12,844 nt of DNA from Candidatus Hermodarchaeota archaeon (GTDB taxonomy: Archaea; Asgardarchaeota; Lokiarchaeia; Sigyniarchaeales; SOKP01). The stretch is from the NCBI GenBank assembly GCA_048885925.1, contig JBHLLG010000078.1, positions 1-12,844 of the forward strand. The letters run 5' to 3'. Positions within the stretch are counted from its first letter, which is position 1; each line of letters starts with the position of its first letter. Positions 4,351 through 12,032 of this stretch are shown here, piece by piece. The notes under the pieces were generated by a model, which worked only from the letters and a program-made list of their open reading frames with translations, was not told where the DNA came from and did no database searches. The translations under genes and the position numbers were made by a program.

Positions 4351-4534
4351 CACTTATTTTTAGATTTTATTCCATTTTCTGAGGTTTTTTCTATTTCCCA
4401 ATTGATATCTTCTTCTGCTTCGTAATACTCTTGGCAGTTCTAGCAACATTCATTTTTAATTATTTGCTTGAATCAATTCTAACAATAAATTATTGTATAT
4501 TTATATTACTACTAAATGTAAGTCCCTTTGCTAA

Positions 4535-5219
4535 TTATGATTTTAATTCCTTAAATATTTCTATTCCTTTTTCAATTCCCAGATGTAATGCTTTGATATT
4601 CATATCAGGATCTCGAAGCCATTCTTTAATTACTTCTTCATAATGTTCAATCTCGATAAATGGAATTTTTCCTGTAGGAATAGCAAAGCCTAACATGATG
4701 AGATTTACATATTGATTAGAATTGAAATAATCAAGAGATAAGTTGGTAGCATTCATAAAAAAAACTTGATTAGAGTATCCATGGAGGATTTCATTGATTT
4801 TTTTTAAAGGAGGATATTCTTCTAAATTAGCAGTAATCATAATTCCTGGAATGGTTCTTGAATTTAAAACGAAAGTTGTTTTATTTGAAGCGAAAATTCC
4901 TCTCCTCAGTGCTTCTACGGGCTCAAAACAAATATACAGATCAGCATCCCCATAACAAATTAAAGATGAATGCAAATTTTTACGCTCATCTTCAAAAATC
5001 TCCTTTTGATACCTGGTATGACTCGTGATAGCTCCTTCTCGTTGAGCAAGCCCGTGCATTAAGTGTAAAAACTTGATTTAAGTTCTATATTTCACTTCCA
5101 AAAGCCCGCTTTATTCCCGCTTTTTGAGCTGCAAATTCAATTAACCTCTTTAAAGTAATAACTCCCTGTCCTGCAGTTCCAGCTATTACTATATTTATAA
5201 TATCCGTTTCTTTAAACAA
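4535..5219 (-). CDS. iorB: indolepyruvate:ferredoxin oxidoreductase beta subunit, split gene: join(5219..5091, 5059..4535), 217 aa if spliced
   Basis: Exon 1 starts at TTG 5219 with SD AGGAGGT at 5233-5227 and encodes MFKETDIINIVIAGTAGQGVITLKRLIEFAAQKAGIKRAFGSE (the G.aGQG motif of IorB/PorC). Exon 2 begins MHGLAQREG and carries AD...FEPVEALR and NLIMLG. Lies directly downstream of iorA. Confidence 0.92.
5060..5090 (-). other. candidate 31-nt bulge-helix-bulge (BHB) intron in iorB mRNA
   Basis: Insertion AUAUAGAACUUAAAUCAAGUUUUUACACUUA with in-frame UAG; 4-bp central helix AGUG/CACU flanked by 3-nt bulges AA^A and UA^A; removal restores the frame and the motif SE-MHG. Confidence 0.85.
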
Positions 5220-5226
5220 TTCTATA

Positions 5227-5233
5227 ACCTCCT
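5227..5233 (-). promoter_or_regulatory. Shine-Dalgarno site of iorB exon 1
   Basis: AGGAGGT 7 nt upstream of TTG at 5219. Confidence 0.8.
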
Positions 5234-5260
5234 ATTTTTATAACTTTAATTTCAATTTCA

Positions 5261-7204
5261 TTAAATCTCGCGGAAAGGCACTTCCTCTGCAAATAAATTT
5301 ATAGTAGATTTACGTATTGCGCCATTTGGGCAAATTTCATAACAAACTCCACATCTTATGCACCGATCTTGATCAATTTGCATTTCTTCTATCCCGTTTG
5401 TCTCAATTCTTCTAATAGCAGGGCAGCTTAAAACCCGTGCACATTCATAGCACATTTGGCACCCTCCAATGAAATATGATACATCTTGTACTTTTTTTCC
5501 TTCTCTTTCTAATGCCCGAATTTGTTCCATACGCCATCTGTGAGCTTGAAGACCACATTCTCTTTTTACAATGATAACTTTAAACCCCTCTGTTTCTAAT
5601 GCTTCTCCAATAGATTTCACAAGTTTTTTAGGATTATATGAATCTTCCACTCTTAGCCAAGAAACACCAATAGATTTGCAAATTTCTTCGATAGAGAATC
5701 CTTTATTTAATAAATACCGAAGAACATCATTTTGATGCCCCGTCATCGCAGTCCAAGAATTTTCAAATATCATTAATAACATATTTGAGTTATATCCTAC
5801 TGCTTCGGCAAGAGGAGACAATCCGGTATGGAAAAAAGTGGAGTCTCCAATCATAGCAATTATTTTCTTATCAGTTTTTGTAGACATCCCTATAGCCGCG
5901 CTTATTCCTCCAGACATACAAATCACCAAATCACTGCATTGTTGTGGAGGAAAGAAAGACATCACATAACATCCTATATCTCCACTGATTATGGTATTTT
6001 CTAGATGATTAGTAGCCTTTAAAATTGCATAAAGCGTGGCTCTTTCGGGACATCCTGTACAGAAAGTAGGAAATCTGCTTGGGATAATCTCTTTATACGA
6101 ATTAAAATTATCAATAGCCTTATTTATTTGTTGATTAGGAGGTTTATTGAAAATCTGTGCTAAGCTTGTAACAACCAATCCCGTAGAGAATTCATTATAT
6201 TTAGGAAAATATTTTTCCCCAATGATTTCTACACTAATATTATGATTATGGGCAATTTCCGCAATTTTCATCTCCAAAAAAGGTTCTAATTCTTCGATTA
6301 TGATGACTCTTTCAAGCTTCTTGATAAAACTAGTGATTTCTGCATAATTTAGGGGATAAATCATTCCCAGTTTTAAAACTGACACATCACTTAGGTTCAA
6401 CTGATTGAGAGCTTCCATTGTATAACCAAAAGGCATTCCACTGGTAATAATTCCAACTTTATTATTACCCTCGAACACTTTATTAATCCTGAGTTCAGGA
6501 ATTGCCTCACGCAATTTCTCAATACGCTCATACAATCTAATATGGTTATTAATTGCATGTGGTGGTAATGAATTATATTTAGGGATATTTCGAATAAATT
6601 CACCTTTCTTTTTTCCCTTTGATAAAGGTTTTAAATCAACAAATCCTCTAGAATGAGCAGTTCTTGTTGAAGTACGAACATTAATAATCAAATCATACCT
6701 TTCTGAAAGATCAAAAGCAATTTTAACCCAATCCTTACATTCTTGAGGTGTATGGGGTTCTAAAGTAGGAAGATGAAGCATCCATGCGTAAAATCGTTCA
6801 TTTTGCTCTTGATGAGATCCTAATGATCCTGGATCAGAACCTACATTTATAACCATCCCTCCTGGATTAGGTCCATTTAGGGCTATCACACTTAAAGCAT
6901 CACTTGCAACATTTAATCCTACATGTTTCATAGGATTAAAACTCCTGCATCCTGTCCATGCAACGCCAGCACATGATGAAACTGCAACCGCTTCGTTTAC
7001 CGCCCATTGATGCACTAAATAATCTGCTATATTCTGATCCTTTTGTATTATTTGTTGAAAATATTCTCCAATATCACTTGTAGGAGTACCAGGATATTGA
7101 GAAACATAAGATACACCCGCTTCAAGGCATCCCCTTACGAGAGCCTCATTTCCAAGCATTAGGGCTCTACCTTCATTAATAGAAAAACGATTATCTTTAA
7201 TCAT
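5261..7204 (-). CDS. iorA: indolepyruvate:ferredoxin oxidoreductase alpha subunit (647 aa)
   Basis: LGNEALVRG..YPGTPTSDI, NEAVA, MKHVGLNVASD, SDPG..SHQEQ, FCTGCPER, GDIGCY, TPP-binding IGDSTFFHTG...N..TAMTGHQ, and C-terminal ferredoxin motifs CxxCxxC....CP and CxxCxxCxxxCP. Confidence 0.96.
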   Translation of the reverse strand: MIKDNRFSINEGRALMLGNEALVRGCLEAGVSYVSQYPGTPTSDIGEYFQQIIQKDQNIADYLVHQWAVNEAVAVSSCAGVAWTGCRSFNPMKHVGLNVASDALSVIALNGPNPGGMVINVGSDPGSLGSHQEQNERFYAWMLHLPTLEPHTPQECKDWVKIAFDLSERYDLIINVRTSTRTAHSRGFVDLKPLSKGKKKGEFIRNIPKYNSLPPHAINNHIRLYERIEKLREAIPELRINKVFEGNNKVGIITSGMPFGYTMEALNQLNLSDVSVLKLGMIYPLNYAEITSFIKKLERVIIIEELEPFLEMKIAEIAHNHNISVEIIGEKYFPKYNEFSTGLVVTSLAQIFNKPPNQQINKAIDNFNSYKEIIPSRFPTFCTGCPERATLYAILKATNHLENTIISGDIGCYVMSFFPPQQCSDLVICMSGGISAAIGMSTKTDKKIIAMIGDSTFFHTGLSPLAEAVGYNSNMLLMIFENSWTAMTGHQNDVLRYLLNKGFSIEEICKSIGVSWLRVEDSYNPKKLVKSIGEALETEGFKVIIVKRECGLQAHRWRMEQIRALEREGKKVQDVSYFIGGCQMCYECARVLSCPAIRRIETNGIEEMQIDQDRCIRCGVCYEICPNGAIRKSTINLFAEEVPFREI

Positions 7205-7212
7205 AAACCTAC

Positions 7213-7289
7213 TCTGAAATTTAATTTTAAGAATTCTTTATGAAATCTAAAATAAAAATTCACGGAATAATTATTAATTAAATTTCAGA
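7213..7289. repeat. perfect 14-bp inverted repeat upstream of iorA
   Basis: TCTGAAATTTAATT (7213-7226) and AATTAAATTTCAGA (7276-7289), 49-bp spacer. Confidence 0.6.
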
Positions 7290-7511
7290 ATATAATAGAA
7301 GTTATACAACTTGCGATTTTAGATGCGATAAAATAAGAGATTTAATAATAAACTAGAGAAAAATCTTCCTACATAGTTTTTATAATTTTTCTTTTTAATC
7401 TTTTCTATTTTGAAAATGTTACATTATATAATTCAAAACAATAAATATCATGATTAATTTCAATAATTATTAAATATGATCAAAATTAATTAGGTAGGGA
7501 TAAATTAAAAG

Positions 7512-8177
7512 ATGACAATAATAACCACAAAAAAGCCCTTTGAAGAAGTTTTAGGCGCTTTGCGAAATGTAAAAAAGATCGGACTTGTATCTTGTGGTAG
7601 TTGTGCTGCAATGTGCCAAACTGGTGGTACAGAAGGCGCTAAAGAAATGGCTGAGAAATTAGAACAGGAAGGATTTGAAGTTGTTGTCACGATTGTTCCT
7701 GAAGAAGTTTGTGACAATCGAGTTATGATGAAAGATTTTCGGCAAATAGATGAAGATTTAAAGAATATCGATGCCATTTTGACACTAAGTTGTGGATTAG
7801 GGGTTGCAAGTATTACTAATGTTCTTGAAAGGAAATATCCTCATATTCCTGTGTTTATTGGGACAAATACAGAATTCATGGGCATGACAGAAAGAATTGG
7901 TCGCTTCTATATGCGATGTCGCGGCTGTGGTGATTGTTTATTAAATGAAACAGGAGGGATTTGTCCAATTACAACCTGTGCTAAATCCCTTATGAATGGT
8001 CCTTGTGGAGGCATGGTTAAGGGAAAATGTGAAGTTGGGAATTATGAGAAGGATTGTGGATGGATTTTAATTTTTAATCGCTTGAAAGAGTTAGGAAGGC
8101 TCGATTTATATACTAAATTGAGAGATCCAGTGGATTGGAGTGAATCTGGTCACCAAAGAGAAGTGGTTTGGAGGTAG
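7512..8177 (+). CDS. metV: methylenetetrahydrofolate reductase small, Cys-rich subunit (MetV-like)
   Basis: SCGSCAAMCQTGG, SCGLG, CRGCGDCLLNETGGICPITTCAKSLMNGPCGG...GKCEV...CGW motifs; directly upstream of metF. Confidence 0.9.
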   Translation: MTIITTKKPFEEVLGALRNVKKIGLVSCGSCAAMCQTGGTEGAKEMAEKLEQEGFEVVVTIVPEEVCDNRVMMKDFRQIDEDLKNIDAILTLSCGLGVASITNVLERKYPHIPVFIGTNTEFMGMTERIGRFYMRCRGCGDCLLNETGGICPITTCAKSLMNGPCGGMVKGKCEVGNYEKDCGWILIFNRLKELGRLDLYTKLRDPVDWSESGHQREVVWR

Positions 8178-8184
8178 ATGAGTT

Positions 8185-9117
8185 ATGGCAGAGAAAAAGA
8201 TTTATTCAAAATTAGGGGAGAAGCTTGCGAATGGAGAATTCATATTAACAGGAGAGCTTGAGCCTGAAAAGACGTGTGATCTTTCCCATACAATAGAAGA
8301 AGCTAAAGAGATGGCACCTTATGTAGTAGCGGCAAATGTAACAGATAGCCCACTAGGAATTGTCACAATTAATAGTATGGCAGCATCTTATATTATTCAG
8401 GATGCATCTGGTTTAGAATGTATTTGGCAATTAACGGTTCGAGATGTAAATAAATTAGGGATTGCAGGTATGATAATGGGAGGTCATGCCTTAGGATTGA
8501 GAAATATACTTTCTCTTACGGGAGATCATCCCTTTCTGGGTGATATGAAAGAATCTAAACCCGTTTTTGACCTTGATTCTGCAACTTTAGTTAAACTTGT
8601 TCGAGAAATGGTTGATAAAAAATCAATAAATGGTAATGAGATTGAACATCCTCCAACATTTCATGTAGGAGCTGCTGCAAATCCAAATGCTGATCCTATG
8701 GAAGCAGAAATCCTTAAAATAGGGAGAAAGGCTGAAGCAGGGGCTGAATTTATACAGACTCAGGTTGTATATGATTTAGATAGAACTATTGAATTTTTAA
8801 GTGAGATTAAAAAGTATAATGTTCCTGTTTTACTTGGAATTTTTCCAATGAAAAGCTATAGTATTGCAAAAGGTTTCGACATGTTTGTTCCGGGCGTGGA
8901 TGTGCCAAAAGACATTTTAGCTAAATGGAAAAATATCAAAACAGAATTTAAAGATGATAAAAAGGAACAGAATAGAATGTATGATCAAGCCAATTATGAA
9001 TTTTTCAAACCTTTTATTTCAGAGCTCAAGAGAAAGGATTTGTTGGCTGGTGTACATTGTATGGCTGTTCATTATCCTCGGATTTTCCCTAAATTGGTGG
9101 AGGTAATTAAAGCTTAG
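8185..9117 (+). CDS. metF: 5,10-methylenetetrahydrofolate reductase catalytic subunit
   Basis: T.ELEP, NVTDSP, QLTVRDVN, NILSLTGDHP, GAAANP, K..AGAEFIQTQVVYD, GVHCM; SD GGAGGT at the end of metV. Confidence 0.95.
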   Translation: MAEKKIYSKLGEKLANGEFILTGELEPEKTCDLSHTIEEAKEMAPYVVAANVTDSPLGIVTINSMAASYIIQDASGLECIWQLTVRDVNKLGIAGMIMGGHALGLRNILSLTGDHPFLGDMKESKPVFDLDSATLVKLVREMVDKKSINGNEIEHPPTFHVGAAANPNADPMEAEILKIGRKAEAGAEFIQTQVVYDLDRTIEFLSEIKKYNVPVLLGIFPMKSYSIAKGFDMFVPGVDVPKDILAKWKNIKTEFKDDKKEQNRMYDQANYEFFKPFISELKRKDLLAGVHCMAVHYPRIFPKLVEVIKA

Positions 9118-10874: not shown

Positions 10875-12032
10875 ATGGATATAAGTGACACAAAAATAGG
10901 AATTGAAAGTACAATTATCCCTCCTTTTGAAACTAACCTCAAGGCAGCAAATATGTATGAGAAACTTGGTTTCGATTCTCTATGGTTTGGAGATCATATA
11001 ATGTCCTTATGGCCTGATGCAATTTGGACACCAGATATTGTAAATATGGCATCATATATGAAAAATCCTCATGATATGTATAACGCATTTCCAACTATGG
11101 CTGTGGTGGCTAACAATACAAAAAAAGTATTTTTAGGGACCTCAGTTACAGAAAGTTTTCGACATCCACCTTCATTACTTGCGCATATGATTCTGACTAT
11201 AGATCATATTTCAAAAGGTAGGGTAATTCTAGGAATAGGTGCTGGCGAGGGAGAAAATATTGTTCCTTATGGGATTAAATGGGAAAAACCAATTGGGCGT
11301 TTAGAAGAGGCTATTAAAATTATTAAACTTCTATGGAAGCATGATAAAAAAGTAAATTTTGAGGGAAATTTTTGGAAATTAAAAGATGCTGTTCTCTCTT
11401 TAAAACCATATAAGAAAAATAAACCACCTCCTATATGGATAGGTGCTTTTAAACCTAAAATGCTTGAGTTAACAGGTAAAATAGGAGATGGATGGTTGCC
11501 ATATAATTTAAATCCTAAAAGATATAAAGAACGTCTCGAAATAATTCAAAGGTCAGCAAAAAATGAAGGACGTAATCCAGATGAAATAACATCTGGAATT
11601 GAGGTGAGTGTAATCATTGATGAAAAAATCGAAGAATGTGATAAAATGATTGAACATCCTCTTGTAAAAAATCATTTATTGTTTTCAGATAATGAAACAT
11701 TTAAAGAGTATGGTCTTTCACATCCATTTGGGGATAATTTCTATGGAATTTTAGATTACATTCCAACAAGGTATGATAAAAAAACTCTAATAGACGCTTT
11801 TGAGAAGATTCCAATAGAGATGTGCAAAGATTTTTATCTAGTTGGGACACCAGATGATATTATTGGGAAATTAGAAGAATATGCTAAAATAGGGGTAAAA
11901 CATATAGTAATTCATAATTTAACAAGCGCCTGCGATATTAGAAAGGTACAAAGCTCTACTTTATGCATTAAAAAAGTTTTAGATCATATTAAGGAAGATG
12001 AATTGAAAATGATCGAACCTATTCCAGGCTAA
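10875..12032 (+). CDS. LLM-class (luciferase-like) flavin- or F420-dependent oxidoreductase
   Basis: GFDSLWFGDH, RHP..LA....TIDHISKGRVILGIGAG, PPIWIGA..P.ML.LTG.IGDGW, VGTPDDIIGKL. Confidence 0.93.
   Translation: MDISDTKIGIESTIIPPFETNLKAANMYEKLGFDSLWFGDHIMSLWPDAIWTPDIVNMASYMKNPHDMYNAFPTMAVVANNTKKVFLGTSVTESFRHPPSLLAHMILTIDHISKGRVILGIGAGEGENIVPYGIKWEKPIGRLEEAIKIIKLLWKHDKKVNFEGNFWKLKDAVLSLKPYKKNKPPPIWIGAFKPKMLELTGKIGDGWLPYNLNPKRYKERLEIIQRSAKNEGRNPDEITSGIEVSVIIDEKIEECDKMIEHPLVKNHLLFSDNETFKEYGLSHPFGDNFYGILDYIPTRYDKKTLIDAFEKIPIEMCKDFYLVGTPDDIIGKLEEYAKIGVKHIVIHNLTSACDIRKVQSSTLCIKKVLDHIKEDELKMIEPIPG

Follow-up and report, generated by a model that had tools for sequence, protein, structure and literature searches.

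A probable bulge-helix-bulge mini-intron in the messenger RNA of an IOR-like beta-subunit gene of a Promethearchaeota (Asgard) archaeon

An interrupted beta-subunit gene and its insert

The stretch of DNA analyzed here (hereafter the window; 12,844 nt, contig JBHLLG010000078.1 of the Candidatus Hermodarchaeota assembly GCA_048885925.1) carries on its minus strand a gene for the beta subunit of an IOR-like 2-oxoacid:ferredoxin oxidoreductase, whose reading frame is interrupted by 31 nt (5060..5090) that we regard as a candidate bulge-helix-bulge (BHB) intron. Exon 1 (5091..5219) opens with TTG, runs for 43 codons and closes with GGA AGT GAA, the insert brings an in-frame TAG (5087-5085) and a +1 frame shift, and exon 2 (4535..5059) begins with ATG CAC GGG and holds 174 codons and a stop. 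Two separate open reading frames (ORFs) are called here, 5085..5219 (44 aa) and 4535..5059 (174 aa), and the layout put forward in a preliminary description of this DNA (a 31-nt insert with UAG and frameshift, and an FGSE-MHG join upon its removal) is borne out by the sequence and by these calls. A Shine-Dalgarno-like AGGAGGT (5227..5233, minus strand) lies 7 nt upstream of the TTG start, and no comparable motif stands ahead of exon 2. Exon 1 is conserved in orthologues (tblastn), while exon 2 covers positions 29-173 of the 173 in the Pfam POR profile (PF01558) and a contiguous orthologue (L003) covers positions 1-173.

Besides its POR domain, the gene is characterized by its place directly downstream of a gene for an IorA-like thiamine pyrophosphate (TPP)/ferredoxin subunit in the same operon. 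This alpha-subunit gene (iorA-like; 5261..7204, minus strand) is an ORF of 647 aa with matches to Pfam TPP_enzyme_C, POR_N and Fer4, and it scores 548.9 bits against NCBIfam TIGR03336 (IOR_alpha), the cut-off of which (650.9) it does not reach. The intact beta-subunit orthologue L003 likewise obtains 110.1 bits against TIGR03334 (IOR_beta), short of the cut-off of 205.8, and IOR_beta is still its best family. The name iorB, used in the preliminary description, therefore holds as regards the best-matching family and goes too far as regards the curated threshold, so that "IOR-like beta subunit" is the safer designation. The sole other match to this subunit in the genome is 30% identical.

Three contigs of an independent metagenome run span 5060-5090 without gaps, which establishes that the insert is present in DNA and is no assembly artefact, a possibility that had been raised together with the intron itself. 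Orthologues were collected by searching 60 related genomes with exon 2 and by placing both exons with tblastn in the fetched loci; within the genus, their open frames are either full length or shortened. Among the 54 genome loci scored (seven further loci and L178, with exon 1 not scorable, stand outside this count), 20 have an insert of 30 or 31 nt exactly between GAA and the next codon and the rest are contiguous, with a 3-nt alignment offset at one distant locus. The 48 metagenome loci scored (6 of 54 fetched were incomplete) comprise 18 with an insert of 30-32 nt and 30 with none. Grouped by their 60-nt flanks, these loci represent 31 distinct intron-bearing and 44 distinct intronless alleles, and duplicate removal leaves 28 distinct intron contexts, i.e., variants of 30-32 nt. 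Intronless orthologues are contiguous exactly at GAA/ATG, and cuts at the canonical positions restore the orthologous reading frame. The bridging contigs and the orthologue survey together show an insert that exists in the DNA itself, is widespread and occupies a single site throughout. An in-frame stop is present in each of the five distinct 30-nt variants from the genome loci, and a full protein is therefore impossible from an unspliced message. A loose DNA pattern search of public genome contigs returned 119 stretches, nearly all of them bacterial chance matches, and five archaeal loci were retained. Close relatives in public collections are Promethearchaeota/Promethearchaeia, a few with other Asgard names, in keeping with the Asgard host that had been proposed.

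Structure, covariation and history of the insert

In a BHB, the archaeal tRNA-splicing endonuclease EndA cleaves each bulge after its second base. At the borders of the window intron, two 3-nt bulges lie on opposite strands with a 4-bp helix between them and an outer and an inner helix on either side (hBHBh'). The minimum free energy (MFE) fold of 5115..5040 reaches -17.3 kcal/mol (z = -2.96; equalled by 1 of 200 shuffles). It comprises the central helix AGUG(5096-5093)/CACU(5065-5062), an outer helix between the exons (9 pairs and a further 3 proximal ones), a 3-nt 3' bulge (5061-5059) and a 7-bp intron hairpin with the loop AAAUC. The central helix, the 3' bulge, the hairpin and an outer exon-exon helix had been drawn by hand in the preliminary description; the 3-nt 5' bulge (5092-5090) drawn there requires two additional U-A pairs at the hairpin base that are open in the MFE fold. 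Read in the BHB register, the allele of the window forms all 4 central pairs, 12 of 14 outer pairs and an inner hairpin of 9 bp. On the minus strand, the outer helix h is built from exon 1 codons (5' strand, 5097..5110) and exon 2 codons (3' strand, 5045..5058), as supported by the fold, RNAalifold and covariation; the central helix H joins AGUG of exon 1 (5093..5096) to CACU of the intron (5062..5065), as supported by the fold and covariation; and the inner hairpin h' occupies 5066..5089, where 5089-5080 pairs with 5074-5066 around a loop at 5079-5075. The 5' bulge AAa (5090..5092) and the 3' bulge uaA (5059..5061) place the predicted cuts by their geometry at 5091/5090 and 5060/5059, the very positions that had been proposed, and the resulting borders coincide with the contiguity border of the intronless orthologues. 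As an A is repeated at both borders, the cut position is uncertain by +/-1 nt from sequence, and this register was chosen because BHB geometry picks it; the motif is restated in a passage of PMC5829648.

We imposed the hBHBh' structure on a 28-row MAFFT alignment of the distinct variants. Standard pairs make up 94.3% of 665 pair cells, 8 of 24 pairs are changed on both sides, and compensatory changes are present in all three helices, with the inner hairpin h' showing both-side changes in 5 of its 8 counted pairs. None of 500 column shuffles matched the pairing or the covariation score, a control that overstates significance because it ignores relatedness; sliding the partners by 1-3 columns is free of that weakness, and it lowers pairing to 15-49%. 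An alignment of 13 sequences gave the same picture. The inserts differ strongly in sequence, and yet all retain a hairpin whose first base is intron base 2; next come four bases opposite exon AGYG and then two bases before the exon's first A. One central-helix pair (alignment columns 23/53) is U-A in 18 variants, C-G in 8, U-G in 1 and other in 1, i.e., a synonymous change of the exon from AGU to AGC (Ser) is faced by a change from A to G in the intron. All 4 central pairs form in 20 variants and 3 of the 4 in another 4, and the borders defined by orthology are the top canonical BHB register out of 49 tried in 21 of the 28. RNAalifold, supplied with no structure, predicts the outer and inner helices. 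Presence and absence among orthologues and compensatory change, both of which the preliminary description had named as informative, are thus available for 28 insert variants alongside intronless alleles, and the structure covaries. In one metagenome contig (L281), the first codon of exon 2 is ATT (Ile) instead of ATG, and a G.G of the outer helix becomes G.U.

We estimated dN/dS among 12 intron-bearing alleles, leaving aside L104, whose exon 1 runs off its contig. Exon 1 has a median of 0.07 (from 55 usable pairs out of 66) and exon 2 a median of 0.08 (from 25 usable pairs out of 66, dS being saturated in the others). Both exons are thus under purifying selection, and the relaxed selection that would mark a pseudogene is not seen. 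The codons also appear to carry a second constraint: the nine distal outer-helix positions are paired on average in 8.5 of 9 cases in 13 intron-bearing alleles versus 5.0 of 9 in 18 intronless ones (Mann-Whitney p = 2e-6, uncorrected for relatedness), and the Ser codon is AGY, followed by ATG, in all 13 intron-bearing alleles, while intronless alleles also have TCT, GCA or GCG at the Ser site and then GAT, TCT, CAT or CAA. Judged from these alignments, the exons seem to be shaped by the intron.

For the history of the intron, an IQ-TREE tree of 37 rows was built from the C-terminal 380 aa of the alpha subunit together with the beta subunit; duplicates (9), loci in which exon 1 is truncated (3) and loci less than 45% identical were omitted. 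The 14 rows with an intron all belong to a genus clade of 31 rows, and all six outgroup rows are intronless. The best tree requires at least 8 state changes, and at least 4 are forced by the starred branches. A single intron clade is rejected by the approximately unbiased (AU) test (p = 2.9e-6), a test weakened here because the trait itself was used to define the group. The inserts have a hairpin core in common, and insert groups follow exon types; on these grounds we read the pattern as a single gain in the genus, a subsequent divergence with the structure kept and then several precise losses, though the intron might also have passed between species by recombination.

Further inserts in the genome and its splicing machinery

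Two other coding sequences of the same genome contain inserts of this kind. A gene for a 4Fe-4S ferredoxin, downstream of an aldehyde:ferredoxin oxidoreductase-like (AFOR_C) gene, has a 32-nt insert in phase 2 (G000:C31 18988..18957, minus strand; L181 1489..1458) that splits a codon within the CxxCxxCxxxC motif; its removal restores the motif, and its MFE fold is a canonical hBHBh'. Out of 30 orthologous loci, 27 are contiguous, some with alleles 98% identical in protein, and three (the source genome, G016 and G023) have a 32-nt insert. Those of G016 and G023 are of unrelated sequence and sit 1 nt further on; there too, the motif is restored by the BHB register that fits best. The second insert, 32 nt in phase 0 (G000:C4 38336..38367, plus strand; L212 1937..1968), lies in a gene for a cooS-type CO dehydrogenase that scores above the cut-off of TIGR01702 and whose two exons cover positions 3-457 and 458-512 of the Pfam Prismane profile. 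It is found in the source genome only, the other 29 of 30 orthologous loci being contiguous, and the intronless alleles already hold the inverted repeat that forms the outer helix. That so many orthologous loci lack them (27 of 30 for the ferredoxin insert, 29 of 30 for the cooS insert) suggests that both were gained recently.

These cases were judged individually, since a genome-wide scan for canonical BHB geometry rejoining two open frames (with a filter that was relaxed after a first version missed iorB) gave no overall enrichment. The scan recovered iorB, and its best match was the ferredoxin case. A filter for the absence of a start codon and of a Shine-Dalgarno motif left 151 ORF-rejoining candidates (20-60 nt) against 118-127 in six decoy registers, an excess that is suggestive only; further coding-sequence introns, including ones with relaxed motifs invisible to the canonical filter, may be among the 151. 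A paralogue-spanning test gave 25 matches with true geometry versus 15-25 in decoys. Twelve loci flagged by their paralogues were rejected as introns: two are plain frameshifts and ten are without an intron-type break, five of these having a paralogue alignment that passes through the candidate site in one frame. The two frameshifts (G000:C62, minus-strand index ~14.3 kb, and G000:C45, ~5.9 kb) occur without extra sequence in a large paralogous family of long proteins, and they are sequencing errors, pseudogenes or programmed shifts, not introns. Likewise, an apparent interruption of iorA in L035 and L165 proved to be merely a different gene order or an extra ORF. Elsewhere in the genome, the iorB intron has only partial matches of 18-20 nt, which we take as chance because two are embedded in uninterrupted coding frames and two in stretches rich in stops (coding status unclear).

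The genome (3.9 Mb, 29% G+C, 95% complete) belongs to a phylum, Promethearchaeota, of the kingdom Promethearchaeati, which we take to be the formal name of the Asgard archaea. It encodes both RtcB (569.6 bits) and an EndA alpha subunit of 198 aa (G000:C22 7621-8214; L001 1177-1773), the latter with 101.7 bits for PF01974 and a score above the cut-off of TIGR00324. The closest solved chains to this EndA are 3p1z_B and 3ajv_B (E = 5.5e-38), presumably the catalytic subunit of the Aeropyrum heterotetramer, with which the alpha subunit aligns gaplessly until one 2-residue gap near the C-terminus. Asgard archaea are described in a passage of PMC5829648 as having an (alpha-beta)2 EndA with an L1 loop linked to broad specificity. 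Of the only 31 tRNA genes called by ARAGORN, 19 have introns, the longest of 1335 nt, and this set is probably incomplete owing to unusual or multiple introns, such as are reported for Asgard genomes in bioRxiv 10.64898/2026.10.13.758758.

As for the remainder of the window, a gene of the methylene-tetrahydrofolate reductase (MTHFR) C-terminal domain family (DUF5981) precedes the MTHFR gene directly (7512-9117, plus strand), and a luciferase-like monooxygenase gene lies at 10875-12032. These genes and the CO dehydrogenase encoded in another part of the genome fit a C1/Wood-Ljungdahl-type metabolism. Rfam had no matches on the window.

Splicing, its rivals and its relatives among known introns

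Based on the covarying structure, the purifying selection on both exons and the exact coincidence of predicted cuts with orthologous borders, we consider it very probable that the 31 nt at 5090..5060 are a BHB intron in the mRNA of the IOR-like 2-oxoacid:ferredoxin oxidoreductase beta-subunit gene of this Promethearchaeota archaeon. In the transcript, exon 1 codons would pair with exon 2 codons into the outer helix, AGUG from the last full Ser codon region of exon 1 would pair with the 3' end of the intron into the central 4-bp helix, and the intron body would fold as a hairpin, leaving two 3-nt bulges exposed on opposite strands. EndA would cleave after the second base of each, RtcB would ligate the exons to ...GSE/MHG... 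and probably circularize the 31-mer, and the joined mRNA would be translated into the full-length subunit.

Several observations weigh against this reading. The outer helix contains a G.G mismatch adjoining the 3' bulge, the RNAalifold consensus is without the 4-bp central helix, and that helix has only 2 of 4 pairs (i.e., is relaxed) in 4 of the 28 variants. The metagenome contig L283 carries the sole 32-nt variant of the iorB intron, in which the canonical register forms only 2 of the 4 central pairs and the 3' bulge has to be 4 nt long; this variant is a relaxed substrate or else a copy in decay. The test on independent contrasts, where pairing tracks the intron in 3.8 on average of the 4 contrasts that are well supported on the tree, is underpowered (p = 0.125), and the genome-wide scan yielded 1780 candidates with true geometry versus 1692-1795 in six decoy registers, i.e., no excess. 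An EndA beta subunit was not found in the 95%-complete genome with PF01974, PF02778 and the alpha protein as queries. Finally, there is no RNA run among the sequencing runs found to contain this DNA, and three metatranscriptome runs from the studies behind two of the DNA runs gave no contigs on 4400-7300, which has no bearing on expression; splicing, cut sites and ligation are what we infer from the DNA.

The relaxed variants, the 4-nt bulge and the undetected beta subunit are also what could be cited for removal of the insert at the RNA level by an activity other than EndA and RtcB. However, the conserved geometry exactly matches EndA substrates, the genome encodes EndA and RtcB, the loop of Asgard EndA is tied to relaxed-motif cleavage in PMC5829648, and a 31-mer is too small for a self-splicing ribozyme; we hold such an activity to be very unlikely. 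Somewhat less improbable, and still very unlikely, is that there is no splicing and that two polypeptides are made, an N-terminal one of 44 aa and, by a restart at the ATG at 5059, one of 174 aa, with the insert as a spacer. This would agree with the two ORFs called and with the ATG that opens exon 2 in 27 of 28 variants, yet L281 has ATT at this place, and ATG is the ancestral codon, present in 6 of 6 intronless outgroup alleles. No insert contains a Shine-Dalgarno-like motif, in contrast to the AGGAGGT of exon 1. Moreover, two separate polypeptides leave unexplained the exon-intron and exon-exon covariation as well as the lost exon-exon pairing of intronless alleles, and in the ferredoxin gene, where the insert splits the Cys motif inside a codon, a restart is impossible.

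An in-frame stop, a frameshift and patchy presence among relatives are equally what a pseudogene would display, had a small insertion (a mobile hairpin element or a replication slip) inactivated the gene. With dN/dS of 0.07-0.08 in both exons of 12 intron-bearing alleles whose synonymous changes are saturated, with 31 distinct intron-bearing alleles, with no other close orthologue in the genome (the next match being the 30% identical one) and with no real copies of the insert elsewhere in the genome, we find inactivation highly improbable. Least credible, to the point of being nearly dismissible, is a ribosome that hops over the 31 nt, as in phage T4 gene 60. A stop two codons past the proposed take-off site, followed by a hairpin, would suit such a hop, but take-off and landing codons are unmatched (GAA precedes the gap in 28 of 28 variants, and the last intron triplet varies and is never GAA), gaps of 30, 31 and 32 nt and an exon-exon helix suit a BHB instead, and an identical geometry recurs in two unrelated genes.

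Splicing of this kind is already known from crenarchaeal cbf5; what is notable about the BHB intron described here is its lineage, its metabolic host genes and the signs of ongoing gain and loss. An intron in the cbf5 pre-mRNA of Crenarchaeota (Aeropyrum, Sulfolobus) has reportedly been described by Watanabe 2002, Yoshinari 2006 and Yokobori 2009. Like it, the present insert interrupts a protein-coding gene, has the motif of a BHB or relaxed-BHB intron and falls within the size range of tRNA introns; the cbf5 intron is cut by the tRNA-splicing endonuclease in archaea with a hetero-oligomeric-type EndA. According to passages of PMC2738675, cbf5 was as of 2009 the only archaeal protein-coding gene with confirmed BHB splicing, others being merely predicted, and the distribution of its intron is patchy and was interpreted as gain and loss. 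The differences are several: cbf5 encodes an RNA-modifying enzyme of Thermoproteota, whereas our host gene encodes a 2-oxoacid:ferredoxin oxidoreductase subunit of Promethearchaeota; at least two further genes of the same genome bear inserts, two of which are apparently species-specific; and cbf5 splicing was experimentally shown, whereas splicing in the iorB-like case is predicted from DNA. The full-text literature searched contained no BHB intron in iorB, in line with the preliminary description, nor in any Asgard protein-coding gene, though subscription papers and supplements outside it could hold predictions.

The introns of Asgard tRNA genes, as treated in bioRxiv 10.64898/2026.10.13.758758, share with the present one the motif, the presumed enzymes and the size class, and are described there as repeatedly gained at sites able to form the splicing motif. 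The main text of that preprint does not contain the word "mRNA", and it mentions "protein-coding" in a single passage, on neighbor genes that served to match tRNA loci. Here, unlike in those cases, the substrate is an mRNA. Its outer and central helices consist of codons, and the bases in them are thus constrained both as protein code and as RNA pairs. In eukaryotes, the short mRNA intron of HAC1/XBP1 is removed without the spliceosome, and a tRNA ligase (in metazoa RtcB) joins the exons; cleavage is by Ire1, an endonuclease that recognizes paired stem-loops and is stress-regulated. The motif described here is instead the BHB of EndA, without known regulation.

The three inserts suggest that several protein-coding genes of this Asgard group may harbor BHB mini-introns, thereby adding genes of central metabolism and a new phylum to the archaeal mRNA introns of this type, previously represented by cbf5. 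Promethearchaeota are the closest archaeal relative of eukaryotes, and their tRNA genes are unusually intron-rich. The 28 variants of one intron, together with the near-identical intronless sister alleles of the two others, amount to a natural experiment on how an intron arrives, persists and is lost, and the polymorphism makes visible the constraint that an RNA structure places on codon choice. Such genes are called as two ORFs or as pseudogenes, with the consequence that metabolic reconstructions of Asgard archaea become distorted, in this genome those of 2-oxoacid oxidation, CO dehydrogenase and the ferredoxin linked to aldehyde oxidoreductase. We further postulate, with moderate confidence, that protein-coding genes of this Promethearchaeota genus are being colonized by BHB mini-introns of 30-32 nt, at least three of them in one genome and two absent from nearly all sister species, at sites with a pre-existing inverted repeat for the outer helix. 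If so, the tRNA-splicing machinery would routinely splice mRNAs in the closest archaeal relatives of eukaryotes, with ongoing gain and precise loss of introns, and gene callers would systematically mis-annotate the affected genes as split or broken.

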